Shown: piece after piece, positions 13,657-56,093 of the stretch
Numbering within the stretch: the stretch's first letter is position 1
How the letters are laid out: each line of letters begins with the position of its first letter
Source of the DNA: Rozella allomycis CSF55
Taxonomy: Eukaryota
DNA length: 64,000 nucleotides
Reading direction: 5' to 3'
Assembly (NCBI GenBank): GCA_000442015.1
Contig: KE561067.1
Coordinates: 1-64,000, forward strand
The notes under the pieces: model-generated
Database searches by the model: none
What the model was told of the DNA's origin: nothing
Seen by the model: only the letters and a program-made list of their open reading frames with translations
Position numbers and translations under genes: made by a program

Positions 13657-15302
13657 ATGGAACCTTCTTACGAAAAACTAACAGTGGTGAAGTTACGCGA
13701 AGAGCTGAAAAATAGAAATTTGTTGAGTACAGGAAAAAAGAAAGAGCTTGTTAAAAGGCTAGAGGAATCTGATTTAATACAATTGCAAAACTCGCCTACC
13801 AGCAATAGAAATCAGTCCAAAACCAAAGAGTATTATAGAGAGTTATGTCGAAGGAGGGGATTACCAGTATCTGGTACAAAACAAGAATTAATGATACGGT
13901 TAAATCTGGCTTCAAATAATGTGCCTTTGTTTTCCCCATCAGCAAAAGAAATATCACCTGCGAGCTCCCCAAGAAGGACAAAGTCTGAAGATTTACCAGT
14001 AGATTTATTTGAGGAAATGAAAAATGTTCGAAAGAGATCAAAATTTTATAGCGAAAAAGAGAGTTTGTCATCGACACCTGAATTACCAAGCAATGAAACT
14101 GATGAATATGTCAATATTGTTAGAAACCCTATTAAAACACTTTCTCTGTTTTCTGACGCTGTTTGTGAAAAGGGTAGTGCATTTTTTGTGGAATGCAAAA
14201 AACACAAATTTCTGATGGGCTTGCTTTTTACTGTCCTGGCAGTATATTTCGTGGTGCGATCACTAGACGGGAACCATCGGCATGTAATTGTTTATAATTC
14301 GGCTAAGCAAGTTTTTTCATCAATTTGAGAAGATAGTCTTGTGGTACGGACTTTGGTTTGTTTATGGTGTGGCGTCTTCCATTGGACTAGGCTTTGGTCT
14401 TCATACATTCGTACTATTTTTGGGTCCTTTTATAGCCAAAGTAGCTATTGCAGCTTTTCATTGCAATTCCATTGACTTCAGTATGGTAGGATTCTCAGAG
14501 TAAGATTTATTTGATCGTAAGAAAAGTATTCATTGTGTTAAATCTCCTGGGTCATTAATAGGAGCGTTGGATGTAATAAATAAAGTTAAATACGAGGCGT
14601 TCTTTTGGGGAGCCGGGACAGCCTTTGGAGAACTCCCGCCATTCTTTATCGCCAGGGCATGTAATTCAAAATAGTTTAATTAATAAGCCGCTGCTATTGG
14701 CATATTTGATGATACTTTCAATGACATGCTTAAGTTGTCAAAGTCCAAAATCACCAACACAAGGGATTGGGTGAAAGTAAAAATGTTTCAAATGATGACG
14801 TCCTTGGGATTTTGGGGTGTTCTTTTGGGTGCGTCAGTACGCCAAATTTTATACTTTTTTTACTTAGATTCCTAATCCTGTTTTCGATTTTGCAGGCATT
14901 GGATGCGGAATCAATAAAGTTCCATTTTGGACATTTTTTTCTGCAACTTTTATAGGAAAAGCTATTGTAAAGACATTTATACAAGTATGCATTAATATAA
15001 ATTATCATAGACATCCTTTGTGGTATACTTATTTGAAAAAGAAAACATTGACAATGCCATCTCCATTATTAAATCCTTTCATTTACATCTAGGCACATTA
15101 ATGGAAGCTTTTATTGACGAAAAAAGAAGTCAGTTTATCGAAGAAGTTGTAGTACATCATGACGTAAATCGTATCTTCTTTATTCAGTTAGAATTCAAAA
15201 TTTGATTTTCTGTATAAATTGTTTATATCGACGCTGATTATATTTTTCGTTGGAAGTATTATCAATCAAATTGCCAGAATACAATTGAAAAAAAGAAAAT
15301 AA
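13657..15302 (+). CDS. VMP1: VMP1 (DedA/VTT-family ER scramblase) with two N-terminal SAP domains; 6 short introns
   Basis: [51 protein letters not shown]-terminal [28 protein letters not shown] and [22 protein letters not shown] in the same frame. Confidence 0.85.
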
Positions 15303-15440
15303 ATTGTACTCCATTTCGTTAAAATTTCAATTAATGTTATTGAAACACCCACAGCTCCCATGCTACATTAATAGAAATTCAAGATTAAAATTTAAATCTC
15401 TCGAATGTTTATGACAACCTAACCGTAATTGTAAACAAAT

Positions 15441-17939
15441 ATGCTTTCTAAATCAAATCCATCTATTGAAAATTTGATATATCCGGCCAAGAAAAGTTAT
15501 TCCATAAGAAATGACAAAGGCAAAATAATTCCAGGTATGATTCTTGGAGACCCTGAAGAATTTGAGCGTATGGAACGCAAGTTCATTAAAGACACTCAAG
15601 TCGATTCCAAAAGAATTGTAAAAAAGGTATTCATATTTAGTACTATTAAAAAAGGAAACCTCGCATATAGCCCAGATCAATCACTCAAAAGAAGAATACG
15701 ATGAAAACATTAGACACTATCTCGTGTAACAATCAATCTTATGCTGAAAAAAGAATGCAAGAAAAGTCATTGGACAATTGGGAAAAGCAACAAACAATAT
15801 GGAACAAAATAGATGATTTGATTTGCCAAAAGACAAATAAGGTTGTTACTTAGACTTTAATTGATAGAAAAAAGAAGAACTAATTGCTAATAAAACATTA
15901 AAATACAGGCTCTTATTAGAAGATAGAGAATTGATGAATCAAATATTGACAATAATGAACAAAGGGGATAATAATGTTGGCACTATTTTAACCATTGGAA
16001 ATGACTTGACGGGCCTTGTTCGAACACTCGAAGGAAAACTCAATTTTAATTGTGAATTGATTAGAAGTTACAATCAATGGTAAATGCATGCTTGAGAGAA
16101 AATCAGCCATATACCGTTAGACACCTACAATCAAGACATTCTCATAAACAAAAATAATGAAATAAAAGGGATTTTGCCAGATTTAAATGTTGCACAAGGG
16201 GTAATGAGAACGGATAGATATTGAAAGGGAAAGGTCGATAACTTGACGGTTTTTGGATTTAACAAGAAAGAAAATAGCAAATCTTTGAAAGAATCAAGAA
16301 GCATACCAGAAATATTAAGAGAAGATTCTGGGCAAAAAAGTGTGTCTGTGGACAGCGTAAAACTTGAAAAGGGCAAATTGGGGTAATATTGCTAAACGAT
16401 GACAATTCAGATCGAAATCATTTGACAGTTTTCCTTCGATTAGGACAGAAGTTATCCCGTTTATTAAAACAGAGGCCAATTGTTTATTAAGTTTAAGTGA
16501 AAAATACTTGTATTTTGAATCTTTTACAAAGCAAATTTGCTGTAAAGCTTTTACATTAACAAATCACTCTGATCAAACAATTCACTTTGAGTGGATCAAC
16601 GAATCTAATAAAAAAGTACCTTCAAAGATTTATATTGAGAAAGAAAGCTCAAGCCTTTTACTTTTTTGGAAAATCCGGATCCGTTTTGGCGGGCCAGTCA
16701 TTATCATTCAACGTGGCATTCAAATCGGATGAATTTGGGGTAAAATGTCTTTGTTTTTTGATAGAGATGTTTAAACAGGTTTGGTCTTTAAAAACAAGAC
16801 CTCAAATTCAAGATAACATTATATTGACTTTGAAGGGGATTTCACTGGAAAAAGACGCAAATAAAAGTAAAAGAGAAAAAATCGAAAAGGATTTATTCCT
16901 TAAACAGTATTTAGTAGTTGTCATTTTGAAAGGGCGAAATCTACAGCCAAATATATTATCGACACTCTTATAAATCAAGTTCATCATTACAGCGAAACAA
17001 AATTGCGTAAATTGATTCTCTTAAGAGAGGAAACTATGTTTAATTATTACAATAATAAATTATATGTAAAAATTGTTTTGTCCTGTAAACAGATATTTTA
17101 CGATCCTTCCACCATAGAGAAATTCAAGAATCTGGTTGAAGAAATCAAACAGATTTCAGGACTATCAGAGTACCAATGGACTTTTTCAATTGATGATATT
17201 TATGAAGTAATAAGAAAGAATTCGTTATATAGATTATTCATCTAATTGACCCTATTGAAAGAAGGTCAGAATTCTATGAAAGGCTAAATAAATTAATCAT
17301 TGACGCAACAAAACCACCAGAGTTGAAGAATTTAAAGCCTAGGCTGTTAAGTTTGACCAGTGCCATGCTTTGTTCGGTCGCAGATAAAATATATGGCATC
17401 TCAAATTCAATCAGAAAAGACATGGAGCTACCTCTAGACGTAACAATTAATTAACATTTTAAACTTTAGAGGCCGGCTGTTAGCAAATTCATAAATCTCG
17501 AAAATATCCCTCAAGCCTCAGTAGAAGAAGAAAAGAACCCGGCTCCTTCTATTGAAACGAAAAAATTAGACAAGGTATTGCGCTTGAAGGTTTAATATAG
17601 GCGCCACAAAAAATTGACAGCAAGACAAAGAAACAAAATGTTCAGCCCTCAAACACCGCTAATAAACCATCAACGCCAAATGCCAAAGCGCAAACAAGAG
17701 TAAAATCAGCGGATTTAGAAAAACAAAATACTCTGGTTTCAATTCCGCAAGGTAATATTCAAATTATATAATATTGAGAAGATGCAGTCTTAAAAAAGAG
17801 CGCTCAAAAGGAAATCTGGACAAAAGAGAGACGCCAAAAAGAGTATGAATACAGGAAAATATTAAAAAATAATGTTTCAAATCAACTGAGAATCGAAATT
17901 TATGAATTAATTGATATTTTAGATGCCTTTACTTGTTAA
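15441..17939 (+). CDS. MYCBP-associated protein (MYCBPAP-like, ciliary), many short introns
   Basis: MILGDPEEF, SLDNWEKQ, IGNDLTGLVRTL, Ig-like LTNHSDQTIHFEW..FYFFGKSGSVLAGQ..FKS; exons join via 26-30-nt introns. Confidence 0.65.
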
Positions 17940-18112
17940 GTCTGCCTCTTTGCATTTAAAAGATCTTTCTTAAATGCTCCACCTTAAATAAAGACTTTTT
18001 TCTTTATGTCTCGCCTTACTATCCAGTTACATTTCTTTGTAAAGGATCAAGATTAAAGACAACTCGGTTGAAACGCCAAAAGAGTATATGTTTTAACCAG
18101 GGTCCATTAGCC

Positions 18113-18415
18113 ATGCAAGCTTTTCTGGACTCGATGTCACAAAAATTGTGTGCAAATATAAGCGTACTAGATATGCATAAAAATACAATCTTCTCCTCTA
18201 ATGCCTTAAATCTACCCTTCAAACCTAACCTGCCATGTCCCAACGAACAATTACAAATTCCAGGAATAAATAAGATCTTAAAAACTACGAAAGAGAATGT
18301 TCACTATATCGTGTTTCAATTAAAAGAGATCCAAATATCTATTGTTACTCTAAAACAAGAGTCGATCAGTCTTGCATGGCAAAGTTACGACGTTTTCAAA
18401 AATCTTCTTGAATGA
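18113..18415 (+). CDS. Hypothetical protein (~100 aa)
   Basis: ATG-initiated ORF filling the gap between genes; no recognised domain. Confidence 0.4.
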   Translation: MQAFLDSMSQKLCANISVLDMHKNTIFSSNALNLPFKPNLPCPNEQLQIPGINKILKTTKENVHYIVFQLKEIQISIVTLKQESISLAWQSYDVFKNLLE

Positions 18416-18535
18416 ATCCAAATAATGAACTCTAAATTTAATTTTAATAAAATCTAAGATTTTAATCAATCTGTCAAAGTTAAGATTTGGCTATGCTTCA
18501 AAGGATATATATTTGTTGGATTTTGTGATTGGTTT

Positions 18536-19129
18536 ATGCAAAGTTACGAGGACTACATTCAAGTAAATAATAATCGAATTTATTAAAAGCAACACTTTGA
18601 AGATTTATTAGGTGATATCCCTCTTGATTTCTTACCTATACTTACTGGGTCTACACCCTCGAATGCAATTCCAGAAATGTTAGAGAGGAAGGAAGGTGCA
18701 CCGAGAAAAACAGAATTTCAAAAACATACCAAATCGAAGCACTTTGACATCGACTTGCTCGCATTTCCAGATCATGTAAATAGGGAATTTCTTTTACATT
18801 AGTATGAAGTTTACGCTGAATTGCCTGGAATTTCAAAGAAAGATATAAATATTCATGTGAATGATAAGCATGTAAATATATGTTCGCCGTAAAGATAGCT
18901 TCTGTCAATCGAAGTCTCAAAAATCGAACCAAAGACTGAAATGGCTGAAGGAACCCCAAAGGCATTGATAAGGGAAAGGAAATATGGTGATATGAAGAGA
19001 GTATTGAGATTGTCAAGAGACGCGGATGTGGAAACGGATCTAAAGGCTGATTTGGCTGATGGTGTCCTTAAAATAATGATACCTCGATCAAAGCCAGAAA
19101 TGAAAAGCAAGAAGATCGAAGTTTTATGA
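18536..19129 (+). CDS. Small heat-shock protein (HSP20), three 27-nt introns
   Basis: DIDL..YEVYAELPGISKKDINIHV..IRERKYGDMKRVLRL..KADLADGVLKIMIPR. Confidence 0.88.
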
Positions 19130-19149
19130 ATTGTGATATAAATTTGCGT

Positions 19150-19739
19150 TTATGTGGTTGAATTATCTTGATTCATTTCAATCAGACCGCAATCACGGAT
19201 TTTTATAACTTTTGAGGTGATTCCGGTTTTACTCCCCAAACTTTCCAATTCTTTGGTAATCTCTAAGCCTGATACGACTTTGCCAAAAACCACGTGCTTC
19301 CTGTTTAATTTTGGCAATGGTGCGCAAGTGATAAAAAACTGTGATGCGTTAGTATCCTTGCTTCCTGCATTCGCCATTGACAAGAGCCCTTCTTCTGTAT
19401 GTTTAAGCCGAAAATTCTCATCCTTAAATCTTTTGCCATATATAGAGTATCCACCGCTTCCATCACCGTTCACAAAATCGCCCCCTTGGATGACGAAACC
19501 CTGAATAAAAGAATCATTCTTATTTACGGGAATTACTCTATGGAATTTACAACCTTTATATCCACATCCTTTTTCTCCAGTACAAAGAATTTTGAAATTT
19601 TCGCATGTTTTCGGTACCACATCAAAAAACAATTCGACAATTATTCGTCCGACCAAGATCTCATCAACTTCTATTTCTAGGAATACCTAACATCTATATA
19701 CTAATCTAATACGTATTCGTTTTGAACTTTTTGTTTCAT
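19150..19739 (-). CDS. Cyclophilin-type peptidyl-prolyl isomerase, introns 26 and 27 nt
   Basis: [44 protein letters not shown]. Confidence 0.95.
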
Positions 19740-19776
19740 TTCTCAAATTNTTGTTTCATTTCTTAAATTTGGTAAA

Positions 19777-20241
19777 ATGCAAAAAGATGTTTCCTATGGA
19801 ATAGTATTACTATTTAAGAATACTATGAATATTTTTGAAACATTTTTAATACATCAACTCTCTGGCCCGCATTGGACAATACCTAAAGGGCACCCCGAGC
19901 CAAGTGACAAGAGTGATGTTGAAACAGCATTACGAGAGCTTAAAGAGGAAACAGGGTATTCCCTTTCTCCTGCTGATCTTTTTGATACTAACACCAAGTT
20001 CTCGACTAGTTATGAATACTATCATGCCAAGAAAAAGATCCAAATTCACAAAACCAATATCTATTTTTTGGCCTTCGTTGGTGAGCACATGCGGCATGAA
20101 GAGAAACCTAAACTTCAAGAATGTGAAGTTGATGAGGCTACTTGGCTAAATTTTGAAGATGCAAAACAAAAGGTTACATTTGAATCGGACAAGCAATTAA
20201 TAAAAGAAGTAGAAAAGTTTATTGAACACAGCAAATTATAG
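19777..20241 (+). CDS. Nudix hydrolase, Ap4A hydrolase (NUDT2)-like
   Basis: HWTIPKGH..ETALRELKEETG Nudix box. Confidence 0.88.
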   Translation: MQKDVSYGIVLLFKNTMNIFETFLIHQLSGPHWTIPKGHPEPSDKSDVETALRELKEETGYSLSPADLFDTNTKFSTSYEYYHAKKKIQIHKTNIYFLAFVGEHMRHEEKPKLQECEVDEATWLNFEDAKQKVTFESDKQLIKEVEKFIEHSKL

Positions 20242-20291
20242 AAACTTTAATTTTTTAATGATAATAAAATTGTTCTTTCGTTATTTATGCC

Positions 20292-21470
20292 TCATTTTCT
20301 ATTGCAATGCATTTCTGGAGATAATTCTTGTTCATTCAGTTTGTTGGAGGGGCACCTCAAGGAATAACACCTTTCGTGAACAATAACACCACAATCTAAT
20401 TAATGAGACTAATGAAGATTACTTTTGCACTTAAACGCATGTTTTGAAGTTATTCTTCTATGGCAAACAGAACAATTATTCATGACGCTGGTAACAGTTT
20501 TGTAGACATGCTCCGAAAATGGTTTATCAACGTTGTTGGGGACTAGGGGGGAATTAACCTGATACAAACCGTGCATGTTTCCAGTTTTTTCTGGAAGCTC
20601 ATTTTCGATAAACTAATTGATATCACATATCTCAATTTACTTGTGACACAAACTTAAATGGGCTAAAATTCGGATAACCCAGTGCTCTGTTTATGAAATA
20701 TGGGAGAAGCAACTTGGTGACTAAGAAATTTAAAAAATGAAACTCTCTGTTCAAAATCAAAAATCTGCTATCAATTTCATAATCGAAAGGTCGCAGAAAT
20801 GTAATAAACCCTAGTGATGGTTTGTCATTAGGCAATTGAACAATGCAGCGGCTGGATATTCGTTTTATCGAATAAGAAAAACCAATTTTCATTCCAAAAA
20901 GGGAAGATAAACATCCTTTGACTGTCATGTTGCCAGAATATTCGACTCTGAAAGTAAATACCTTTCCAGAGACAATCAAAATGTTACCATGTTGGAATTC
21001 CTGGTTATTTTCGATATTATCCCAATATCTTCTATAATTGGCATTTTATTTCCAATCCAAAAATCGATTAACGTGATTTCTTTAATCACATAACCCAAAA
21101 GACCGCGCCGCAAATTCAAAAAGTTTTCCTCAATATTCCTTTTTACAAAATTCAAAAAGCCATCCATTTCTGTTAACTCTCCAAAAATTCGAGAAAGCAT
21201 GGCGTTTAACTAGGATCAAAAATACAATTAGTAAATTACCCAATGCACCTGTTCTTTATCACAAAAATCTGCTAATATTGGAAGCTTCAGAAGTGCGTCT
21301 TTTTCTAATTCCTTGTTTCACCATCCAAATCATTTTACTAAACGCGGGACTTGCTTTTTTGGCAAAGGCGCAAATAACTGAGGCCTTATGAAAAATGCAA
21401 AAACAACCATAATCTGTAACGATATTAGAATGAATACAGTCGAAATAACGTAAAGTGAGTCAAAAATCAT
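20292..21470 (-). CDS. TM + SMP lipid-transfer domain + C1 zinc finger (PDZD8/Mmm1-type), 5 short introns
   Basis: N-terminal TM; EQVHW|LNAMLSRIFGEL..ITLIDFWIGNKMP; C-terminal H-x9-C-x2-C..C-x2-C-x4-H-x2-C..C after splicing. Confidence 0.7.
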
Positions 21471-21492
21471 TTTGGAAATTCCAAAAATTTAG

Positions 21493-22376
21493 ATGCTGGG
21501 ATATCCAATTCCTAAGAAACCATGGGAAAGCAATGCCGTTATTGGAACAACAGAGCAGTTCGGTACAGATAATAATAACCCTCCTCTGCCACCTAGAGAA
21601 ACAAACCCAAGTATTTCTACCCCATATTCCAATATTCCAACTAATTATCAAAGTACTGTTACAATCATGAATTTTTAAAAGACTATACACCATATAACAA
21701 TTATTATGGATCATATGCAGTTAATAGTCCCTACAGTTATAGTCCATACAATTCTTTCAATTCATATCAGTATGGCAGGCCTCAAATCTCTAGCAATAAT
21801 CCAGGTCTCGTGGCATTGGAACAGGTTGTTAATTCCTTTACTCAAGTTACGCATATGATAGATAGCACTGTTCATGCAACATATTCATCTTTTTTGACAA
21901 TTTTTGGAGTCGTCGATCAAATTAATGGCTTGAAGATTCATTTCTCACAAATCTTAGGGATGGCTTCGTTTTTCGGCTATTTAAAACGTTTTTTCTCGAG
22001 AAAAACAGGACCAGAACAAAGGAATGATTTTGTTAAGGAGTTCTCCAAGGGCCGTTCCCCGGGATCCAAAATTGTGATTCTATTTCTTGTAATGTTAGTT
22101 GCACTTCCTTATTTGTTAACGAAAGCAGCAAATCATCTTCGTAAAAATCATATTAAAAGCCCCTCGGATTATTCCTTTGCAAAAGCTTTGTATAATTATA
22201 GCCCGGCGTCTGAGAGTGACATTCCCTTAAAAGTTGGTGACATAGTAGCAATTTTAGACGAAAACACGTCCGCGGGTAAAGGATGGGCCGTTGGACGATC
22301 TCAAGATGGAAAGATGGGCTATTTTCCATTGAACTATGTAGAGGTGGTTAAAAGACCTTCCAAAAATAAAGAATGA
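21493..22376 (+). CDS. PEX13: Peroxin 13, one 29-nt intron
   Basis: PKKPWE, Tyr/Asn-rich stretch, LEQVVNSFTQVTHMIDST, TM, C-terminal SH3 (AKALYNY..GYFPLNYVE). Confidence 0.92.
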
Positions 22377-22439
22377 ACATTATTGGTTTGTTTCTATTTT
22401 TAAACTATTTTTTGTAACATCACGCAACTCCTGTATCAG

Positions 22440-23914
22440 ATGGCAAATACTATATTGCGAACAGCTGAATCATGGAGAAGAAGCGTAATGAGTGTTTATG
22501 AGTAATACAATGCATCAATAAACATAGGTTTCCTTTGGAGGTCGAGAATGGATTAGAAAGAGCGCCCCTATTAGCAAGTAGAATCTCCCGCTTGGAGACA
22601 ATCCATGAAGTAGTCGTACGAAAGTCATCATTCTTCCAAACTTCTTTCAATACAGCAAATTTAATGCTAGGGGTTGGAATTCTCTCCATCCCATATATTC
22701 TGAAGACGAATGGTTGGGTGTTAGGGACATCTCTAATGATGATTGTTATGCTTATCGCGTTAACCACGAACAAAATGATAGCCAGATGCATGAAAGAATA
22801 CCCACAAATCTTAAGTTTCCCTTCAATTGCTGAAGTATCATTTGGTAAACAGGCGGGACAATTTGTATACACAGTATTCATATTGGAATGTTTCGCGAGT
22901 GCTTGCGCTTACATCATTCTTGCCGGTAAATATTTACACTTCAAAACAAAGGCAATACTTTGAACGCAATTTTTCCAGCCATTTCATCGGATATATTTAA
23001 AATTATAGCTTGGATTGTCATAATTCCAACTGTTTGGCCAACAGACTATTCTTATCTGGCATATGCCTCTATTTTAGGTCTTACGGGAACCTCTGTAACA
23101 CATACTATTATATATAAGCTTTAGTTTATGTTTATTGTGATCTTTATGTGTGGATTTCTAGCCACTTCATCTCCTGGATCTCTTTTAAAACCAGCAGAAA
23201 CAAAATTATTCCCGGAATCGCTTGCAGATATCCCGTTAACGTTTGGGCCAATCATGTTTTGCTTTGCTGGTCATACCGTGACACCAACTATTATTTTAGA
23301 CATGAAGCAACCCAAATTGTTTAATCGAATGATCACAAGTACTTATGCCGTGGTTACTACAGTATTCCTGTCCATGGGGATTGCAGGGCACTTTATGTTT
23401 GGGCAAGATACGGAATCAGAGGTATTAAAGTAACATTTGTTTTATGTAGTTCACATTAAATTTAGCATTTCAAAATGAATACCCAAGACTGCTGATAAAA
23501 GTTTGCTTAGGTCTGATAGTGATTAATCCGTTGACGAAGTTTGCTCTCAGACTTAAACCTGTGTTTCAGGAAATTGAAACACTACTTATTGGTGACCCCT
23601 TAAAACCAAAAAGAGGGATTAGGCCTGAATCTCTATCGTATTACACGATGCGAACGATTTTGAGGACATGTATTTCACTTGGGACTCTTGTTGTTGGAAT
23701 CAATTTCAAAAGATTTATGGATTTGCAAGCGATAATTGGTGCTCTTTTCTCATTTTTAGTATGTGCTATCGTTCCTTCGGTGTGTTATTTGAAACTCTTT
23801 GCAAAAACGATGACCAAAGTTGAAAAGATGCTAACAATAACATTAATTCTAATATCTACAGCAATGTCGTCCTTTGGAACATTTTGTGTTATTAAAGATA
23901 TGGCAAATGCTTAA
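22440..23914 (+). CDS. Amino acid transporter (Aa_trans, AVT1-like), 4 short introns
   Basis: SSFFQTSFNTANLMLGVGILSIPY, FCFAGH..MKQPKLF, INPLTKFAL. Confidence 0.9.
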
Positions 23915-23947
23915 ATAAAATTTACTTATTTATTAACCAATGCCGAT

Positions 23948-25148
23948 CTAATCAGTAGTTTGTGAAGGTAGTAACATATTGGAAGGGATCCATGTTGGAT
24001 AAATTGGCAAATACGGCATAATAAAAGGACTTGAATTGGAAATGGTTCCCCTCCTTTTTAATCTTGCAGGAGAACATTTGATTGCCTGTCCCAACCATAT
24101 TTTTCCATTCTAAGTTCGAAAACAAAGCTAATTACTTCATTTTCAACTGCATTTTGCGCTGCTTCGTTGTTTTTATATGTAACAAATGAAAATGCATCAA
24201 GCGGCACTTTTGAATGCTGTCAATTTTATTACTTCCGAATTGTTTTTTTCTGTTTATAATTTCTATCTGCTCTATTTCGCCATAAAGACCAAACTTGTCG
24301 CGAATGTTTTGCTCATTAACGAGATCAGGGTTTAGTCTACCAATAAACACTTGATTTGGTAAAGTTTTGTAGGCATCCTCTAAATTCTCTTCAAAAAATA
24401 TTTCAGTATCAATTCTTTTGGTGGCAAGATAATTCTTTGACCTCCCCCTACGTTGAATATCTATTTTTCTGAATAGGTCTTGTTTAATCCAGCTCGATGG
24501 ATCTTTAACAAAATGGTTGGGTACCCATTGAATTTCCCAATCTTGGTTATTGGTTTTGAAAGTCTTTATAACTGAATATAGTAAAGACTTACTCTGAACG
24601 CAATAATAGCTTCATTTCTATTACGATATTGTACACAGGTAATCTGTACAGGTTCTTGTATTCCACTCACATGGTGTGGTAATGTCCAGATAGATTGACA
24701 AAATTCAATCTTGCCGAAGCTTCTTGCATAATTTTTAAATGATTCAGCGCTCATGCTTGAATTTAACACTAGCAAAGTCCTGACGCACCTAGCCTTTTCT
24801 ACTCGTAGCCTGCGATTCTCCATTTCCATCCCGGACCCGTAAATTGAGGCTTGATAAGCATCTTCTACATCCTGATCAAAGGACTGCATGAATTTCTTAC
24901 TTGGAATTGTAAGAAACCAAATGGGCGACCTCTTTTATCTCTGGAAGCCTTAATTGACAAAACACCAAAACCTTGAAACAATTCATTTAGCCTTTCTGAA
25001 AGCTCTTCATTACTTAATTTCTGAGGAAGACTAGTTTCCATTGAACCAATTACTATTACTTTGCAATAAATAGGCATGCATCAGGGTGCGCCATGCTGTC
25101 TTCATTTTCTGTAGTATACGGTGCCATATCCTTTAAATTTTTATCCAT
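23948..25148 (-). CDS. Rim4-like RRM RNA-binding protein, 5 short introns
   Basis: PDACLFIANLP..RDKRGRPFGFLQF..RRLRVEKARCVRTL resembles Rim4 RRM1; later RRM VFIGRLNPDLV..FGLYGEI..AFSFVTY. Confidence 0.72.
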
Positions 25149-25402
25149 TGCAAAAATGCTATTGAAAAGGCATAATTTTGGCAATTTTTATAGGTCAATG
25201 ACTTTGTCATCTGTCATTTGATAGTATTCCCTATATCAAGATTTTCTTTATTCATCAACCTTTTTATTGATTACTGAAGTCTTCACTGGAATAATATAGT
25301 TTTACAGAATCATTCAAAATCAAGCGAATTTACGAAAATACAATAGTTTCAAACACATCAAAATTGATAATGTGTTGATTCTTTCTGAGTGTTTACATTT
25401 TG

Positions 25403-27248
<1,846 letters not shown>

Positions 27249-27367
27249 TAACACTGCAGATAAATCTCCGGTTACCTCGACGAGTAACTCAATGTTAGTT
27301 AAGTATAAAAATAAAATCTTCAAAATGTTTTATTATGCATCAATGTTAAATGATAATGCCAACATCT

Positions 27368-27940
27368 TTATTCGCCATGCTTCAGCACTCTCACAAACTC
27401 CCGGTAATTAAAGTTATTTTTGTGGTCAATTTTTGCCCCTTTCATGAGAATATCAACTTCATCATCTGTAAATCTATCACCCATTGTTGTCAAATATTCT
27501 CTTAAATCATCAGCATTAATGGATCCCAGCGATCTTTCGTCCAACGCCTCAAATGCTTGTAGGATTTCATGCTCAGGATCTGTACCTGACAATCTATTAT
27601 ATTTCACGATATTACATTACTTTTCCCCCATTAATGTCAAGAACATGGTGAAGTTTATAGATCCAGGGGCTTCTGCCATCATATCGTCAATGTATTCTTC
27701 AGTCGGTGATTGACCTTTATTGAGAAACATCTTGTCTTACCAAGAGATGCTAGCATATCTTTTAAATCCTCCTTGTCAATAAATCCATCATTGTCATGAT
27801 CAATCATTGAAAACGCTTCTTTGAATTCAGCGATTTGCTTCTGATCAAACATTGCAAAAACATTAGAATTTTGTCGAACCGACCGTTTCTTCTTTTGCTT
27901 TCTTGCTGACTGAATGGATTGAAACAAAATGAATTACCAT
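27368..27940 (-). CDS. Myosin regulatory light chain, introns 28/26/27 nt
   Basis: [69 protein letters not shown]. Confidence 0.95.
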
Positions 27941-27984
27941 CTGAAAATAATGTAAACAAAAATGCGCTATTCAAATAAGGAGAT

Positions 27985-29109
27985 TTATTTTCTATATTTT
28001 TCAGAATATAAGATTAAGATTAAGGCAAGAATCATTAGACACATTCCAGCTGTAGTTGAGACAGAAATTTGATCTTTGTATGCTAAAGCGTGAACCAAAG
28101 CTGTCAATGGAATTGTGAGGATGATGGCGAGGGAAGCTACAAAGGGTGATGTAAAGGCAATAGCCAAAAGGAAGAGGGAGTTATAGCAAAGGGAACAAAA
28201 AATGTTTCCTGCGATGTAGATCCAAATAATATTTTTGTTAGGTAGACAAAATTCTTCTAATTTGGTTATATGCACAACCAATAGTAAAGGCCACTGTCCG
28301 AACAGCGTAAAGAGGCCAATGTATCCAGTTATCTGATTTGACAAATAAATTTTCCACGACGAATCTTTAAACACTGACTTCAAAGTATTGAATGACATGA
28401 ATTTCTTTAATAAGACTTCGTAAAGCCCGTAAAAGATCGCAGATACTAGACCGAGAATTTCACCAATCCAATTAGTTTCACTCAAGTTTGAATTATTATT
28501 TCCATTTTCGAAAATCATGTAGATACTACAGAAAGCCATCAAGCAAGAGACCAAATGAAGCCAGCTCCATGTCATATTTAAAAAAAAGATAGAGAATATG
28601 AAAGCAAAGAAAATATTTGAATTAAATAGTAACACTACAATATGTGCTTCTGTGTATTGCAGGGACATGTACCATAACAAATTTGGGATTGTGGAGAGAA
28701 TGGAGAATAGAAATGAAAAAATTAGAAACTTTTTTAAAGGAAATCCTGTTAAAAAGCGGATTCTTTTGCTGTAACCCAATTTTTTAAAGTCGAGAGGTTG
28801 AGGTTCTAAATCTGTGTTTGAATTAGTTGAACTCGCTAACGTTTCTGATGACTCTGCTGTAAATGAATTAGACATCTTGTTTCTTTGAAATTTAAGTCTA
28901 ACATAATCAACGAAAAGTAAAACCGTCAGAAATGAATGACTTGCCCACCTTTTAGTTAAAAAAAATTATCAACTTTACAGGATGAAAAAAGGCTGCTTGT
29001 AGTTGTATTCTTTTTGTATTACTTGAGCGATTTCATTTTGAAGTATGTATATAATGATACAAAGGAATAGACACAAGGCGCCTTTGAACCTTTCAGTCCA
29101 TATTTTCAT
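27985..29109 (-). CDS. DMT/EamA transporter (SLC35F/THI74-like), one 30-nt intron
   Basis: YKQPFFILW..HSF, multiple TMs, GEILGLVSAIFYGLYEVLLKK, TSPFVASLAIILTIP. Confidence 0.8.
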
Positions 29110-29265
29110 TTGCCAAATTTTGCAAAAAAAGTCGCGGAAAATCACGTTGGCCAGTTCTTCAAAATTAAAAGACTAGATACATCAAAATCTTAATTTTGCT
29201 TATTTTATTTATCATCGTGAAAAGTTATTGATTTTGATTACATAATATACTAATACCTTTACATT

Positions 29266-30405
29266 TTACAGTTTAAGAATTTTCGATGGTCGATAAAAGA
29301 CAAAAAGAAAAATGATACCAAAAACCACAGCCAGTCTTGCAATTGAATGGGAACTTGCAAAGGGAAATAATTGTCTCAAGAATTTAAAAGAAATGTATAT
29401 TATAAGAAAAGAAACAGCAAAAATAAAAGTTGGATGTACCTTGAGTGTTTTCCTTGCCATTCTATTCGATATAGATTCATCAATGAAGAAATATTTCGGA
29501 CTTTTAACTCCATCCAATTGTTTGTGTTGGTTTTGACTGAGCATTGGACGAATTTCATCAGGTTTTGATTCAATGAGGCTACCATAGAGAATTCCTTCAT
29601 CGCATGTGTTTATTTTGGCGTTAATCATTTTTCCCAAGAAGCAACATGTTTCAGTATTGAATTGAGGGGAGACGAAGACGGTTCTGTAATTTATGTCTTT
29701 TCCTTTAAGATATTCAGATTGGATTTCTGTTATAAGAACATTTTGAATAGTTCCAATATTCTTTTCAGGGGAAAATGAATAGATAATTTCTGATCCATTT
29801 CGATCTGCAACGGTTATTGAAAGGTTTGAAATTTGATCTCTAAACCTTTGAACGAGAACAATGTGATTTCTCAAAGAGTCATTTGTAATATCGAGTGATT
29901 TATAAACTCTATGGTTTAGCAATACTTGGGTTATTTGGTAGGCATTGTTGTTTTCTAATAGAAAGGATAGAGGAATGGCCCCTAGTTTAATCCTGCAATT
30001 CATTGGAATTATTTTTGTTAAAGATTTTAAAATGGATGAAAATTGTTTTGGAAAGCAAAACTCTATTATTATTTCAACTACACCTTCTAGCATAAGCGGA
30101 CTACAATGTATNCTTCTAGCATAAGCGGAATACAATGTATTTACCGTGAAAACATGTTTTAACCTGCTCCAGCAAATCTTCGCTCGTTAAACATATGCCA
30201 AATGGAACATTTTTTACAAATTCTTTATTGCTGATTAAAGTTGAAGTCTCTAACAATCACATTTAAATCTTACTGAAATTGTAACGCTATTCAATGACGA
30301 AGTTTCAGAATTATCATTTTCTATACTGTTGAATATTTTTTTACTATTATTCCGTTCGCTTTCTTTAGTCCTATTTCGAACTTCTTCGACAAGATCCCAG
30401 GTCAT
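29266..30405 (-). CDS. Hypothetical protein with two C-terminal TMs (crosses N join at 30112)
   Basis: MTWDLVEEVR.. joins the 29266-30135 ORF via short introns; C-terminal hydrophobic helices. Confidence 0.5.
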
Positions 30406-30443
30406 TGATTTAAGAAAAATGGAAAAGTAAATGTAAATAAACA

Positions 30444-39281: not shown

Positions 39282-40437
39282 ATGTCGTTTAATCAAATCA
39301 AATATCGTAAGCTTGTTGATATTGTAAGTTTTTTCAAAGCACCAATAGATTTTGCAGTTGCATATGGTTCCGCGGTATTTCCTCAATCACAACGCCAGAA
39401 AAAAAACACGGTAGCAAAATTTATTGTCATGTACAAGATGTATGATTTTATTTTTGGAGTTAAATCACCATTGGAATTCCATTCAGAAAATATGAAACAA
39501 AATCCGGACCATTATTCTTCTCTTAAACTATTTGGCCCTAAAATTGTCTCATGCATTCAAGAAAAGATACCAGCCCATATTTATTACAACACTTTAATAC
39601 ACATAAATGGAAATCTTATAAAGTATGGAGTTGTCTCATTGAATGATTTGTCCAATGACTTAAAGAACTGGAATACAATGTTCCTAGCCGGAAGAATGCA
39701 TAAACCTATTTCCATTATTAAATCGAATTCCGATTTAGACAAACTTCTATCTAGAAATTTGGAGTATGCAGTTTATACTTCTCTACTCCTATTACCGAAA
39801 TCTTTTACTTTAAAAGATTTGTATTTAGCGATTACTTCATTATCATATATTGGGGACCCAAGAAAAGGTATTGCTGAAAATCCAAATAAGATTGAAAACA
39901 TTGTTAACCACCAATTCGATTGTTTCAATACCATGTATTTACCAGNAACACACTTTTATCTAGAAATTTGGAGTACGCCGTTTATACTTCTCTACTTTTA
40001 TTACCGAAATCTTTTACATTAAAAGATTTGTATTTAACGATTACTTCATTATCATACATTGGGGACCCAAGAAAAGACATTGCAGAAAATCCAAATAAGA
40101 TTGCAAACATTGTTAACCACCAATTCGATTGTTTCAATACCATGTATTTACCAGTGCTAGAAAAATTGGCAATCATTGAGAAAGGTATTGTAACAAGGAC
40201 GATCCCATTTGAAACCATTATTGAAAACTTGTCACCGCATTTGAAATTGAAACTAAATGGCAATTATTCAAAACCTAATGTAATTAAGAGTAATAATAAT
40301 TATTTTACTTAATAGACTTGAAAGATATAGTAAACATGCCGTCCATTTTCCAGGCCGCAAAAGGTTTGCTAACTGCCGGAGTTTATAAATCTGCAATTTA
40401 TTCGTTCAGAAAATTGAAAAAATCTTTTAATAAATGA
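39282..40437 (+). CDS. TAM41: Mitochondrial CDP-DAG synthase Tam41 (internal ~200-nt duplication around N at 39946)
   Basis: FAVAYGSAVFPQ, MYDFIFGV, IKYGVV..DLKNWNTMFLAGRMHKP, LSYIGDPR..ENPNKIENIV, QAAKGLLTAG. Confidence 0.93.
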
Positions 40438-43028: not shown

Positions 43029-44201
43029 ATGAATGCCAGAAATTCATTGCGTCGGTTATTTGGAACAAGAATAGAAAACAATAGGTTTGAAGCATTAAAA
43101 GCAAAGTTAAAATCAGATCCAAAAGGTCTTGATGCATTTATAATGACAACTGCAAAGAAAAAGTATTTTATTTACGTTTGTTCGATTTAGTCATGTAAAA
43201 CTACCAGAATGGTTGAAAACAACGATACCTGTTGGCGAAAATTATCATAAATTAAAATCGACTTTGAGAACACTTAATCTAAACACTGTAATAATGAAAA
43301 GGTGGATTGATCAGGTATGCGAAGAAGCCAAATGTCCAAATATCGGTGAATGTTGGGGTGGAAATAAAGATAAAACGGCAACTGCCACTATAATGGTAAC
43401 TCTGTAAACGATTAAAGAAAGCTAATGGGTGATGAGTGCACAAGGGGGTGTAGATTTTGTTCTGTGAAAACTAACAGAAAACCAAAGCCGCTAGATCCCA
43501 TGGAGCCTGAAAATACAGCCACTGCGATATCCAAATGGGGTCTTGATTATGTTGTTCTGACCTCGGTTGATCGTGATGGTAGAAAACAGTTCTAATTAAA
43601 CTGATAGATTTACCTGATGGCGGGGCTACTCATTTTGCCTCCACAGTCAAATTATTAAAACAAAAATCCCCCAAACTACTCATAGAATGCTTAACAGGGG
43701 ATTTCCAAGGGAATAAAGATCACATTTCAATTGTTGCGGAATCTGGCTTGGATGTTTATGCACACAACATCGAAACCGTTAGAAATTTAACACCTTTCGT
43801 ACGTGACAGAAGGGCCGGATTTCAGCAATCCTTAGATATTTTGCTTCATGCGAAATCCGTCAATGAGAAACTCATAACAAAGTCTTCAATCATGTTAGGT
43901 TGTGGGGAGCAGGATGAAGAAGTCTTAGAAGCTTTAAAAGGTATGCAAATATTATTTTTTCAAGTAAGATTTACGAAAGGCGAAAGTTGACTGTGTAACT
44001 TTGGGGCAATACATGCAACCAACAAAAGGCCACATGAAAGTTCATGAATACGTTTCTCCAGAGAAATTTCAATATTGGAACAATATTGCTTTAGACCTTG
44101 GGTTTCTGTACGTTGCTTCTGGCCCTCTAGTTCGCTCATCATATAAGGCAGGTGAATTTTTCATTTCCAATGTTTTAAAAGAAAGGAATAAAAAACAATA
44201 A
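43029..44201 (+). CDS. LIP5: Mitochondrial lipoyl synthase, 5 short introns
   Basis: [48 protein letters not shown]. Confidence 0.97.
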
Positions 44202-44211
44202 TTTATGTTTA

Positions 44212-46550: not shown

Positions 46551-46577
46551 ATCTTAAAGTTACGGTAATTATTATAT

Positions 46578-47609
46578 TTATTTTTGCATGCTGTATTTTT
46601 GTTGAAGTTCATATGCAAGCAATGAAATGCCGAATAGTGGAGCAACTATGAGGCATCTTTGTGCGGAACCTTTAAAGAACGCCTTTATGCCTTCTGTTTT
46701 ATATATAACTTGATAACAATTTAGCATCCCAGAGTAAATATTAGGCCTGTCGGGGTGATGCATAATCTGAATTCTAGTTTTGACAACTATTTTCATGTAT
46801 GCATATAAAATACCATCCATTGGTGTCACTACAATAGCGGCAAATGAACCAGCCATTATCCCAGACGCAAACGTATGCCACAATTGAGATGAGCCTGTTT
46901 CCCTGTGCAGAGTTTGCTTTATATATGCAGACAAGGAGAAAAATATCAATGAGAAAGGTACATCTCTGTCTAGATAAAATCAATTGCTTTTACCTACACA
47001 AAGTTTGCGTTGTCCCTTTATATAATCCTCTTAAACCTAATTCTTTTACAATTGTAGTAAGGGATTTTTTGGCGCCATTTTCACCTGCTATTTGCATTTG
47101 GATTTTGGCCATTTCCATGGGATTCGTCGCAATAACCTATTTCAATTTACAACATCAATTTACTTGACAAAATCCAGCTGTAGCTCCTGCGACCTGTAAC
47201 AATTATTTAATTTTATTACCATTCCATCAACAGTCGTCAGCTCTTCCATTTTTAAGTTTTTCCTCTTAGCAATTATTTCCCTGGCCGCATCGTTTACCGC
47301 AAGCTTTATTGCTTTTTCGGGGGTAACGCCAACAAGGTTTGGTACAAGCCCGCGGTATAAACCCCTAGCGCCCTCCATGCGTATTATTTGCTTAAACATA
47401 TTAAGGCCAGATATGTTTCCCTTTTGATTTTGTAATCTAGTTTTTAATGTATCCAAAGGAAATATTCTACTATCTTAATGGTAACCGGGTTACATGGATG
47501 TCCCTAATACTCCAGCTATTGCGCCAGATTTTAGCTTTGACGATAAATCTGTTTTATGAATTAACTTTTCTGAATCGATTAATGGTAATGTAGATGAAGG
47601 AGCTTGCAT
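46578..47609 (-). CDS. Mitochondrial carrier, glutamate carrier (SLC25A22/AGC)-like, 5 short introns
   Basis: FPLDTLKTRLQ, LVGVTPEKAIKLAVND, NPMEMAKIQMQ, RDVPFS, TPMDVVKTRIQ, APLFGI. Confidence 0.9.
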
Positions 47610-48844: not shown

Positions 48845-48853
48845 CGCATATTT

Positions 48854-50961
48854 TTATTTATTGAGCTTGTTGATTAGTTTCAATGACGAAGATAAGTCTT
48901 TGACGTTGTGTATGCGAATGACATTTGCCCCTTGCATGACAGCATGGCAACTAACGGCTAAAGTTCCAAAATCTCTTGATTTAGCGTCGTCATTTTGAGT
49001 TAATTCTCCAATAAAGCGTTTACGGCTAACACCAATTAGCCACGGGTACTTTCCAAGTAATCTAGAGGATTTGAGTTGCTTGAGGTTTTGAAGGATTTCG
49101 AGATTTTGCTCTGTGTTTTTGGAGAAGCCAATACCAGGGTCCAAAATGATATTCCAGGGTCGAATGCCACTTTTCAAAGCGTTTGATACGATGGTAGATA
49201 ATTCTTTTTCTAGAGTATTTATTAATCCGTCCTCATAAGAATTGAGAGAATTCATAGTTTTAGAATTTCCTCTCATGTGCATTAAGCAGACAGGGACGTT
49301 AGCAAGGGCCATTGTCTTGTACATATTTTGATCTCTCAATCCCCCGCTAACATCGTTTATCATATCAGCGCCCGCCTTAATAGCAGCAGCCGCGACCTCT
49401 GATCTGAAAGTGTCGATTGAAATAGGTATTTCATTATTTACGCGTCTAATGGCTTCTATAACTGGTATAACTCTCCTTAGTTCTTCTTCGATCGCTGGCT
49501 CATCTGCAAAGGGTCTAGTGGAACAACCGCCAATGTCAATTATGTCTGCCCCTTGTTCCACCATTTCCAAAGCATGTTCCACTGCTGCCTCGACGGAAAA
49601 ATAATCACCGCCGTCACTAAAGCTATCCGGTGTAACATTAAGCACACCCATTATCACACAACTGTCATTCCAAGATATTGTTCTACTTCGAAATTTGGTA
49701 ATCCACTTTGCCGCGTCTTCCGGATCGTAATTTTGAGAATTTTGAAGAATGCTGTATAATTTTTTCATTTCAATTTGTAAAGTTGGGTGAAAGAAACTTG
49801 GATCGATGCTATTTCAAAGGTTTAAAAAAATTACTCGCAAAATGGTGCTAAAACAAACTCTCGCTCTGGTATTCTAGGATGAGGTATTGTTAATTCTGGT
49901 GTAATTAATTCTAAATCGTTATAAAATAAAATGTCTAAATCAATTGTTCTGGGCCCGTTATCAATTTCTTTAACTCTTTTCAATTCTTGTTCAATACCCT
50001 GGAGAAAATGTAGAAGCTCTAGAGGATGGAAATCAGTTTCAATCTAATTATTAGGATTAAAATATCATACTTTGCAAACGGCGTTAAAGAAACTTGGCTG
50101 ATCTAAAAAATACATCGGCTTAGTTTCGTAAAGGCGTGACACTTGAACTACCGATAGCTTTGAGCATTCCATCAAACACAATGCCGCGTTAATGTTACTA
50201 TAAGAATCACCTAAATTAGATCCCAAAGCAACAAAGCATGTATTTCTCTTGTCATCCTTGCTAAGAGAATCATCTGTAAAATTGCTTTTTATCAAAACCC
50301 CTGCTCCATCAGCCTCCAAAACAGCGGCAGGTTTAAGCAACTTGACAGAGACATGTTTGGAATATTCTTTACAAATATCCATCACAAAACAGCATAGACG
50401 TTCCACAGTCTTAAATTTTGTAGATTCAACCTCATTGACGCATCTTTCCACCATTTGCTTATAATTTAAATTTGAGTCGCCAAATATTTTAATGTCAAGT
50501 TTAATTGGTTGTAATTGAATTCTCTCAAATGAATTTAACCCAATAATAGCACGCAAAGCGAGCTCATTAATAGATATGTAATGAACATTAGTCAAACTGT
50601 CGACTCGATTTCTTGAAAAACAAAAAGCGAGATTATTTGAATTCAATAAACATTTTGGTAAACTCACTTTACATTTGAACCAGTCAATATTGAATGAAAA
50701 CAATACCAAAGATACTTCGTCTGCAAAATTAACAAGATCTTTAAATTTTTTATCCAGACAGAAATTTTTCAAAGTTTTAGCAACCGTCGAGTAACTTACT
50801 GAATCCTCTAAACTGTCAGTTTCACTGGTGGAAGATATATCTATTTTGAGTTTCAAGTTGAAAATAACTGGCTGACTAGAAAATCTATCCCAATTATCAA
50901 CTCCTACACAGCAACTTGTTTTAAAATTCTCCAATATAACAAAACTCTCTGTTTCGGTCAT
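48854..50961 (-). CDS. FOL1: Trifunctional folate synthesis protein (DHNA-DHNA-HPPK-DHPS), 2 short introns
   Basis: SVSYSTV, IIGLNSFER; VALGSNLGD..GPRTIDLDILFY..PHPRIPEREFVLAP; MGVLNVTPDSFSDGG, ISIDTF, DPGIGF, GVSRKRF. Confidence 0.95.
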
Positions 50962-53419: not shown

Positions 53420-53534
53420 TTCGTTGAATCAACCGATGAATCGGAATTTCCAAAATTTAAACAAATCAATTAAAAGGCTACGAATGAGATATAATGAGTT
53501 ATGTTATCTTAATTTATTGATTATTCTATAATGG

Positions 53535-53870: not shown

Positions 53871-53969
53871 GTCTTGTTTTAAAATTACCCCTATCACATC
53901 TATATTTGTACCAAACGAGGGGTCAAATTTTGAACCAATCAAAAGACTCTAGGTTTTGCAGGGGTGAAA

Positions 53970-55079: not shown

Positions 55080-55226
55080 TTAATAGAATAATAAATATTA
55101 TTACATTACAAAAAAAATTCTTTTCCATTGATTAAAAGTTTCTCTCCTCTTCAAGAAGATTAACTTTGATTAGAAAAGCTTTAACGGCTATAAAAAGCCA
55201 AAGGCTATACGCTAACCCAAAGCTAT

Positions 55227-56093
55227 ATGAATCGTTATTCTTCAGATTTGCTTAAATTTCTACTTTACTTGGTCAATTTTCTTGCATTGGTATACAGATT
55301 AAGGTTTCTTATATTTAGATTGGAGGATTGGCATTGGTTGGGCTGTCAATTGCAGCAATAGTTGAACAAAATTCAATTCACGATTTTGTCATGTAATAAC
55401 ATCTTTTAGAATTTTATTAGGATGGGATATCCGGTTTCGTTGCTGATAATCGGGGCACTATTCGTTTTGTTGGGCTTATTTGGCATGTGGGCAACGGGTG
55501 TTCAGTCTGTACGTATGATCAGACTAGTAATGATTACTAATGAACTCTATTAGTACCTAATTGTACTCTCCATTATAATTATCCTGCAAGTTGTCCTTAC
55601 AGCAGTTGCATTATCTCAACATGACAAAGTAAAAACACTCTTTACGAATAATAGATTGATTCTATGGTGAAAGATGGATGGTATAGCGCCAATCCATCTG
55701 TTATTCAAAACGTCGAACAAATGTTTGAGTGCTGTGGGTACAGGAATGTTCTGGATCATGCAATACCTGCAGATTGCACTAAAGATCCCAATTTTGGTTT
55801 TAAGAGATCTTGCAGATACCAAGTAATGAAATCAAAATTCTTTTAGAGATTGTCACTTTGGCTCAAAGGCATACAAGATTATTGGGTATAGTTGGGCTCA
55901 TCCTTGGGGTCATGGAATTCGTAGCGTTAATATGTGCTAGCATTTTATTATATCAATTGGGAGGAGAAGACTGGAAACGAGAAGGAAGTATTCTTGAAGA
56001 AGCAAGAAGGTAAAAGGTTAATGTTCATCAAACTAGCTGGTTAGATTAAATCGAGAGGGGGCAATCCCCACATATCAATCAGCCCGCCCATAA
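55227..56093 (+). CDS. Tetraspanin, about 6 short introns (last exon uncertain)
   Basis: 4 TMs; LGLFGMWA; large loop FECCGY..PADC..SC. Confidence 0.82.

Follow-up and report, generated by a model that had tools for sequence, protein, structure and literature searches.

Introns of 26–32 nucleotides with a donor-anchored adenosine in a 64-kb window of the Rozella allomycis genome

Introduction

Ultra-short introns are already known from several lineages of eukaryotes (our statements on the cited papers refer to those parts of their texts that were available). In myxobolid myxozoans and in the dicyemid Dicyema japonicum, introns have a median length of 22–27 nucleotides (nt) and GTa and AG as their only signals (PMC13644364, Mol Biol Evol 2026). 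These introns also contain two or three A residues of weak conservation whose distance to the AG grows with intron length, so that their position relative to the donor is constant; that they are branch points is a guess of the authors (PMC13644364). The available text of that paper closes on the open question of how a branch point and a 3′ splice site are chosen when sequence signals are almost lacking. Here, we describe a system of this kind in the fungus-like parasite Rozella allomycis CSF55, for which we analysed the first 64,000 nt of contig KE561067.1 (GenBank assembly GCA_000442015.1, positions 1 to 64,000 of the forward strand; hereafter, the window). Its introns occupy a range of 26–32 nt with a sharp lower edge at 26 nt, and they are enriched for an adenosine at position 23, counted from the first base of the donor (hereafter, A23), whose distance to the donor does not grow with intron length.

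Rozella resembles the myxobolid and dicyemid systems in its short median, in splice sites reduced to GTA and AG and in the donor-anchored A. Those systems belong to animals, whereas Rozella is a relative of the fungi, and skipped AGs, an AG-free zone and chains of abutting introns, all present in Rozella, are not mentioned in the available text of PMC13644364. Among the ciliates, introns of 23–26 nt are spliced best in Paramecium bursaria (bioRxiv 10.1101/2025.08.05.668791), and Fabrea and Stentor have 15-nt introns in which the branch adenosine is highly conserved (PMC9004412). Ciliates and Rozella have a narrow length range and GT-AG ends in common but differ in lineage and in the lengths themselves. 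Introns fixed at 15 nt cannot separate anchoring to the donor from anchoring to the acceptor, whereas a spread of 26–32 nt can.

The Microsporidia, the sister lineage of Rozella, have few introns, which are short (~23–50 nt) and carry strong GTAAGT donors and CTAAYTT branch motifs (PMC2483917, PMC6349667), and the S23 gene of R. allomycis contains two introns of ~30 nt without the microsporidian motifs (PMC6349667). Median intron lengths of fungi are given as 29 bp upwards, with the species unnamed in the available text (PMC8042348). A literature search returned no description of a length gate, a donor-anchored A or chains in Rozella; the 2013 Rozella genome paper, which possibly states intron lengths, lay outside that search.

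Results

Introns fall between 26 and 32 nt with a sharp lower edge

Introns were placed with a gene finder that combines a three-periodic Markov coding score with the standard stop codons and requires of an intron only that it begins with GT and ends with AG. With a uniform length prior of 10–150 nt and no preference for GTA, it placed 28 introns at 26–31 nt, and 27 of these start with GTA. Both results agree with a preliminary description of this DNA, made from the letters alone, that had reported hand-reconstructed introns of 26–32 nt, mostly 26–28 nt, with GTA donors. When a bonus for GTA was added under the same prior, 46 of 88 predicted introns were 26–31 nt long (16, 14, 9, 4, 1 and 2 at 26, 27, 28, 29, 30 and 31 nt, respectively). 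Only eight of the 88 were shorter than 26 nt, and all eight are doubtful: seven have a frame-keeping alternative of 26–34 nt, and the eighth (25 nt, at 33596) runs antisense inside Cfap43. One of the seven, an 11-nt call at 43579, was refuted by homology, which gives 29 nt.

Frame logic alone gave the same picture. When at least 30 open codons with a positive coding score were required on both sides, together with closure of the frame upon retention, seven GTA candidates were counted across all lengths of 10–25 nt, followed by 12, 14, 7 and 6 at 26, 27, 28 and 29 nt, respectively, and by a background of 1–5 per length beyond. Because the edge at 26 nt appears both under the uniform prior and in the frame-logic count, it is not a product of the prior. 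The hard minimum near 26 nt that had been postulated is thus supported within the window, where introns of 25 nt or less are not frequent.

For the analysis of sequence features, we compiled a curated set from a second pass of the gene finder that favoured 26–32 nt, keeping introns that are needed for an open frame and have flanking exons of at least 30 nt. The set comprises 98 introns (30, 27, 19, 11, 4, 5 and 2 at 26, 27, 28, 29, 30, 31 and 32 nt, respectively) with a median of 27 nt, and 76 of the 98 are 26–28 nt long. A 32-nt solution at 60139 was false, as was a 32-nt "intron" of the gene finder at 5122; removal of the former as an artefact left 97 introns for the later statistics. Introns of a length divisible by three that lack an in-frame stop (e.g., 46787–46813) escape frame-based detection, so the intron count, at a density of ~100 per 64 kb, is a lower bound. 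We conclude that the 26–32-nt range with its edge at 26 nt is real in this window and beyond chance.

By construction, all 98 curated introns begin with GT and end with AG. At the donor, 67 of 98 have A as their fourth base, and positions 5 and 6 are almost uninformative. The base at −3 of the acceptor is T in 52, A in 37, C in 5 and G in 4 introns, that is, T or A in 89 of 98; the GAG acceptors that had been called frequent are therefore rare.

Nearer AGs are skipped at junctions that agree with homologues

We compared 23 junctions, all belonging to introns of 26–31 nt, with homologous proteins: four in lipoyl synthase, six in a SAP-domain VMP1-like gene, six in topoisomerase III, two in the ribosomal protein uS13 and five in a mitochondrial carrier. 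The individual introns discussed below are the following (a slash marks the junction in the protein sequences).

43396–43421, plus strand: lipoyl synthase intron of 26 nt, the minimum length
43579, plus strand: lipoyl synthase intron of 29 nt, junction VDRD/DLPDGGA
43941–43968, plus strand: lipoyl synthase intron of 28 nt
14284–14311, plus strand: SAP-domain VMP1-like intron of 28 nt
15164–15191, plus strand: last VMP1 intron, 28 nt
58672–58698, plus strand: topoisomerase III intron of 27 nt with a GTT donor
4647–4673, plus strand: uS13 (S18) intron of 27 nt, right after the ATG
4968–4994, plus strand: uS13 intron of 27 nt
46966–46993, minus strand: mitochondrial carrier intron of 28 nt
46787–46813, minus strand: mitochondrial carrier intron of 27 nt

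In lipoyl synthase, the intron at 43396 skips an AG at position 22, and its removal restores a conserved stretch; the public model lacks LMGDE here. The intron at 43941 skips CAAG at 24 and uses the AG at 28, which restores DLRKAK, a stretch present in homologues and absent from the public protein P0001. The preliminary description had this skip right and the gene wrong, which it named LIP5.

Two further examples from that description lie in the VMP1-like gene, and their sequences are as it claimed. At 14284, A23 and G24 form the skipped TAAG and the CAAG at 28 is used; the resulting junction, LDGNHRH/FFHQFEK, is gap-free against seven VMP1 homologues, and the Rozella record lacks that stretch. 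The last intron skips TTCAG at 24 in favour of TTAG at 28, with a junction that is gap-free against VMP1 homologues and identical to P0121. All six junctions of this gene align without gaps, five of them exactly as in the public model. Topoisomerase III likewise has six gap-free junctions, including that at 58672, where AGs at 22 and 24 are skipped and the junction RFSVVNG/RELKNSF is gap-free against eight homologues.

The two uS13 introns were placed with solved structures. The exon that follows the intron at 4647 aligns from residue 2 of solved uS13 chains, and the exons flanking the intron at 4968 correspond to residues 2–99 and 100–154 of chain 6rxt_Cl. The first exon of this gene (4644–4673, exon and intron together) consists of the ATG only, followed by the 27-nt intron, and an ATG-only first exon followed by an intron is a layout known from ribosomal protein genes of yeasts and microsporidia.

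At the carrier intron with its donor at 46993, splicing skips CTAG at 24 and takes ACAG at 28. With a donor 4 nt upstream, the intron would likewise be 28 nt long and end at the CTAG; the version that skips CTAG reads TLC/RDVPFS. The residue before RDVPFS is Cys, as obtained by skipping CTAG, in 8 of 111 homologue motifs and Tyr, as obtained with the upstream donor, in 0 of 111, and the previously proposed skip stands. The other listed carrier intron, 46787–46813, has a length that is a multiple of three, contains no in-frame stop, carries A23 and was read as coding by the gene finder. Its removal yields TPMD/VVKTRIQ and closes a nine-residue gap against all eight aligned homologues; retention would add nine residues within a conserved carrier motif. 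The remaining four carrier junctions are gap-free.

Three more introns named in the preliminary description were examined by their reading frame.

23095–23124, plus strand: amino-acid transporter intron of 30 nt
55823–55848, plus strand: tetraspanin-like intron of 26 nt
16740–16766, plus strand: candidate intron of 27 nt, left out of the curated set

The first two hold up as proposed, which brings the confirmed examples of that description to six of seven. In the transporter, the AAG at 24 is skipped for the AG at 30, splicing at 24 would leave an in-frame TAG, and the downstream exon matches Pfam Aa_trans. In the tetraspanin-like gene, TTAG at 24 is skipped and GAG at 26 is used, the only acceptor that keeps the frame into the last transmembrane segment; the upstream exon has a weak Tetraspanin match (E=1e-4) below the Pfam cut-off. 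The candidate at 16740 is in frame, contains no stop and has T at position 23 and an AG at 25. Two other exons of its gene, which had been called MYCBPAP, matched no Pfam family, and that name is unconfirmed.

AGs are tolerated up to position 24 and absent from position 25 to the acceptor

Internal AGs whose G falls at positions 6–24 fill 72 of 1843 slots within the curated introns, where they are tolerated but not used. None was found in the 145 slots between position 25 and the acceptor in use, against 5.7 expected (P=0.003), and the zone is equally empty when only frame-shifting slots, where the models cannot be biased, are counted (0 of 99, P=0.019). In 12 of 97 introns, a skipped AG at 24 consists of A23 and G24. 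As decoys, we used 444 segments elsewhere in the window that start with GTA and reach their first AG at 26–32 nt. Because 78% of the curated introns end at 26–28 nt and only 15% of decoys reach the first AG (at 26 or later) so early, the acceptor is held close behind the threshold.

The adenosine at position 23 is anchored to the donor

When the curated introns were aligned at the donor, position 23 was A in 70 of 98 and, at 0.42 bits, the only informative interior position. Aligned at the acceptor, the best interior position was −4, with A in 55 of 98. A23 is present in 70 of 97 curated introns versus 146 of 444 decoys (Fisher P=1.5e-12), and position 23 was used in no model or search that found the introns. 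The statement that these introns have no consistent branch motif thus does not hold as far as a donor-anchored A is concerned.

By length, A23 occurs in 28 of 30 introns of 26 nt, 18 of 27 of 27 nt, 14 of 19 of 28 nt, 4 of 11 of 29 nt and 6 of 11 of 30–32 nt. Among introns of at least 27 nt, A23 is found in 42 of 67 versus 26 of 67 for A at −4 (discordant introns 28 vs 12, P=0.017). Because A23 keeps its distance from the donor as intron length grows, it is anchored to the donor and not to the acceptor. The acceptor G lies 3 to 9 nt past A23 (28, 18, 14, 4, 3, 2 and 1 introns, respectively), most often 3–5 nt, so the acceptor does not lie at a fixed distance from A23. We regard A23 as a candidate branch adenosine.

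Sequence motifs are rare in these introns: CTAAY was counted in 7, TAAYTT in 2 and GTAAGT in 4 of the 97. In this respect and in its intron density, Rozella is unlike the Microsporidia.

Longer intervening sequences consist of abutting units

Four longer intervening sequences were recognized, each of which splits exactly into abutting GTA...AG units.

60111–60166, plus strand: topoisomerase III, two units of 28 and 28 nt
30767–30852, plus strand: Cfap43, three units of 29, 31 and 26 nt
34534–34653, plus strand: Cfap43, four units of 30, 29, 31 and 30 nt, with in-frame TAA/TAG stops at residues 710–725 of the read-through open reading frame (ORF)
35204–35543, plus strand: Cfap43 coding region, 12 units in 340 nt (29, 29, 29, 28, 27, 29, 28, 28, 28, 29, 29 and 27 nt)

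All 21 units are 26–31 nt long, and all 17 inner boundaries read AG/GTA. By comparison, 59 of the 6430 GTA...AG segments of 52–130 nt in the window can be divided into such units. The reading frame joins across the 340-nt chain, and the exons around it match Pfam CC_Cfap43 at positions 572–701 (before) and 703–764 (after), with the next exon at 766–810. Within this chain, units 1–5 and units 7–9 are tandem repeats with periods of 29 and 28 nt, and this periodicity suggests that chains may have grown by duplication of units. No long non-chain intron was confirmed in the window; candidates of 117 nt (53111) and 90 nt (58051) are unconfirmed or artefacts.

The AG/GTA boundaries resemble the ratchet points of Drosophila, where in zero-nucleotide recursive splicing an acceptor AG is directly followed by a GT that recreates a 5′ splice site (bioRxiv 10.1101/006163). 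As far as the available text goes, Drosophila cuts very long introns into large pieces, whereas the Rozella pieces, known here from sequence, measure 26–31 nt with up to 12 in a row. A literature search on recursive, tandem or abutting introns found no description of such chains.

Genetic code, public gene models and other genes of the window

The G+C content of the window is 32–37%. In eight ORFs with Pfam matches, all TAA and TAG codons fall outside the Pfam-matched stretches, namely before the start, past the end or in short clusters later shown to be introns, and the genetic code is therefore the standard one. Long ORFs under translation table 6 had prompted us to consider a ciliate code with TAA and TAG as Gln, which is ruled out by the same clustering outside the matched stretches; frame logic with TGA as the sole stop was uninformative. 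Exons are 99–100% identical to NCBI proteins of R. allomycis CSF55, namely lipoyl synthase P0001, the SAP-domain VMP1-like protein P0121 and topoisomerase III P0159. After the Rozella records, the best matches of these exons come from chytrids and other early-diverging fungi at 50–70% identity. A dicyemid or myxozoan origin, to which the animal-like genes and the 27-nt introns had seemed to point, is ruled out by the identity to the Rozella proteins.

An Rfam scan of the window returned 0 matches. A search of metagenome contigs for close relatives with the VMP1 protein alone found none; with an eight-sequence alignment, it gave 80 loci, nearly all at 27–41% identity, and a single short fragment at 50%. 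One RNA run compared with positions 13500–33499 gave only stray matches of 18–37 nt.

Missing from the public lipoyl synthase P0001 (323 aa; window 43163–43968) are the conserved residues LMGDE and DLRKAK as well as a segment close to the N-terminus. At three of the four tiny introns, this model takes later AGs or different donors, and the loss of LMGDE and DLRKAK is due to the later AGs; our 353-aa model aligns gap-free to fungal homologues. The public P0159 (1213 aa; window 57140–61226) joins a CAP/SCP-domain gene (57140–58048) and topoisomerase III into one protein, from which the conserved N-terminus of the topoisomerase (MVKVLNVAEKPS...) is missing. Our gene finder produced the same fusion through the false 90-nt "intron" at 58051. 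Three paralogues (57140–57658, 61460–61957 and 62419–63432), two of them in tandem after topoisomerase III, start near-identically with MS(P/S)(S/A)DANKLLALTNQHRAS... and are CAP/SCP-like, from the Pfam family listed for P0159.

On the minus strand at 48857–50961, a fused FolB-HPPK-dihydropteroate-synthase-like folate-synthesis gene adjoins a patatin-like lipase gene, which fits a fungal and not an animal affinity. Two neighbouring intron-less genes on the minus strand (36318–37994 and 38428–39114) have a near-identical N-terminal signal-like sequence, MKI(F/S)FCL...IAVIVAPPVQ, and the longer one contains an AIG1-type GTPase domain. A 209-bp tandem repeat of two copies with 93% identity (39739–40154) lies inside the gene at 39282–40434 and spans its 29-nt intron at 39935. 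In the gene at 12776–13521 (minus strand), a 39-nt tandem repeat of 3.7 copies (12808–12951) encodes the lysine- and glutamate-rich repeat KEKKKKEKKLKDLKE. The window contains nine isolated N bases (541, 1796, 19750, 25434, 30112, 39946, 57085, 60373 and 63385), one of them within the intron at 39935.

Discussion

We propose, with a probability of roughly 0.6, that the introns of the window are ordinary U2-type GT-AG introns at their minimum span, in which the branch adenosine would be picked by position and the first AG at least 3 nt downstream would then be used. Such introns would have shrunk to the smallest span that the Rozella spliceosome accepts. The branch adenosine would be chosen ~23 nt from the 5′ splice site by its position and not by a sequence motif, and the 3′ splice site would be the first AG with its G 3 nt or more past A23, that is, at 26 or later and usually at 26–28. 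AGs ending at 24 or before would either lie upstream of the branch A or contain A23, and an AG at 25 would be too close to it. Because AGs up to 25 would all be unusable relative to A23, the acceptor would appear to be measured from the donor. Most likely, it is the span between donor and A23 that the ruler measures, after which the ordinary rule of the first AG past the branch would apply. We infer both the role of A23 as the branch point and a steric origin of the length limits.

This proposal keeps one part of the earlier idea of a distance-based acceptor choice and gives up another. Acceptor use does depend on the distance from the donor, as AGs at 24 or before are unused, but the AG is probably not measured directly from the donor without a branch signal. 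Because a fixed distance between branch and AG was not found (3–9 nt from A23 to the acceptor G, with a fixed distance from donor to A), the donor-based reading survives in this refined form. Overall, the observation behind the preliminary description is partly confirmed and its interpretation partly supported.

In yeast and mammals, the first AG past the branch is used, an AG exclusion zone exists, and AGs upstream of the branch or too near to it are not used. Rozella is alike in that no AG occurs between A23 and the used acceptor, six chain units with an AG at 25 being the exceptions. It differs in that the branch of yeast and mammals is found by sequence and may lie anywhere, whereas that of Rozella would apparently be found by its distance from the donor, with a minimum gap of 3 nt between branch and AG.

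Several points weigh against our proposal. In comparison with well-studied spliceosomes, 3 nt from branch to acceptor is a very small gap. For Candida guilliermondii, a gap of this size has been suggested (PMC2483917, available text). A23 is absent from 27 of 97 introns and near background in those of 29 nt (4 of 11). The units of the chains show A23 at no more than background frequency (7 of 21), and an AG at 25, a feature seen in 0 of 67 isolated introns, is present in six of the 12 units of the 340-nt chain. The curated set comes from our own gene finder with a 26–32-nt prior, which favoured the nearer acceptor where two keep the same frame; such choices arose at 46169 (24 vs 27) and at 6887 (22 vs 28), where no conserved homologues are available to decide. 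Finally, the data come from a single window of 64 kb, and most introns rest on our own gene models.

For the chains, we tentatively suggest that the spliceosome may be gated for length on both sides, accepting only ~26–32 nt, and that longer sequences could be removed by obligatory serial splicing of chained units with zero-length exons; the largest case would be the 12 units amid the conserved coiled coil of Cfap43. That a ruler would explain why longer introns are stacks had been suggested before, and this link fits the sequence of the four chains, which comprise 2, 3, 4 and 12 abutting units. It is somewhat doubtful, yet possible, that only a lower limit exists and that long sequences and chains are removed in one step, the units being a relic of intron tandem duplication. 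The tandem repeats with periods of 29 and 28 nt in units 1–5 and 7–9 would suit such a relic, as would the background level of A23 and the AGs at 25 in chain units, and the public P0159 removes the 56-nt chain in topoisomerase III as a single intron. Units that are dissimilar in sequence nevertheless keep GTA...AG and 26–31 nt throughout (21 of 21 units in four chains), a structure that just 59 of the 6430 segments of 52–130 nt share, and the window yielded no confirmed long intron outside the chains.

The direct ruler from donor to acceptor that the preliminary description had envisaged, with A23 serving not as the branch point but, for example, as a contact for a 3′ splice-site factor, is unlikely. 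It would account for the sharp 26-nt minimum and for the AG-free zone from 25, and it is in keeping with the lack of a branch-like motif around A23 (CTAAY in 7 and TAAYTT in 2 of 97) and with the 27 of 97 introns in which A23 is missing. Against this, an A that is anchored to the donor and lies just upstream of the acceptor has the appearance expected of a branch adenosine, the skipped AG at 24 contains A23 in 12 of 97 introns and, to our knowledge, every known spliceosome requires a branch nucleotide.

We consider it very improbable that a classical branch motif lies at a fixed distance from the acceptor, with the early AGs upstream of that motif and the donor playing no role. The 26-nt introns alone, with A at −4 in 28 of 30, could be read as acceptor-anchored, but at 27 nt and above only 26 of 67 introns have A at −4, against 42 of 67 with A23, the distance from A to AG varies from 3 to 9 nt, and no motif is present. 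Equally slim are the chances that the used AG merely has better surroundings: T or A precedes 89 of 98 used acceptors at −3, but TTCAG, TTAG and CTAG are among the skipped sites and GAG, CAAG and ACAG among the used ones. That the pattern is an artefact of hand-made or computed gene models, as the length prior of the curated set and the deviating public models at some junctions might suggest, can be practically dismissed, given the agreement of 23 junctions with homologues, the same length peak under a uniform prior and an A23 signal that entered none of the intron-finding models.

The kind of system described here is already known from other lineages. As far as our search extended, the new elements are its occurrence in an intron-rich lineage that is sister to the Microsporidia, the fact that anchoring to the donor can be told cleanly from anchoring to the acceptor, and the chains. 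The spread of 26–32 nt makes it possible to separate measurement from the donor from measurement from the acceptor, and the donor is favoured. If units are indeed removed one by one, the chains would show that length has a hard limit at the upper end as well as at the lower, and their growth by tandem duplication of units would be a simple and so far undescribed route for intron expansion under a hard ruler.

For annotation, the public gene models mis-set some of the shortest introns and thereby lose conserved residues, such as MLMGDE in lipoyl synthase, and a length-aware re-annotation would improve the proteome that is used in fungal phylogenomics. The pair formed by intron-rich Rozella and the intron-poor Microsporidia with their strong motifs could show how splice signals and parts of the spliceosome have co-evolved, and Rozella is a natural test case for the measurement of distance by a spliceosome.

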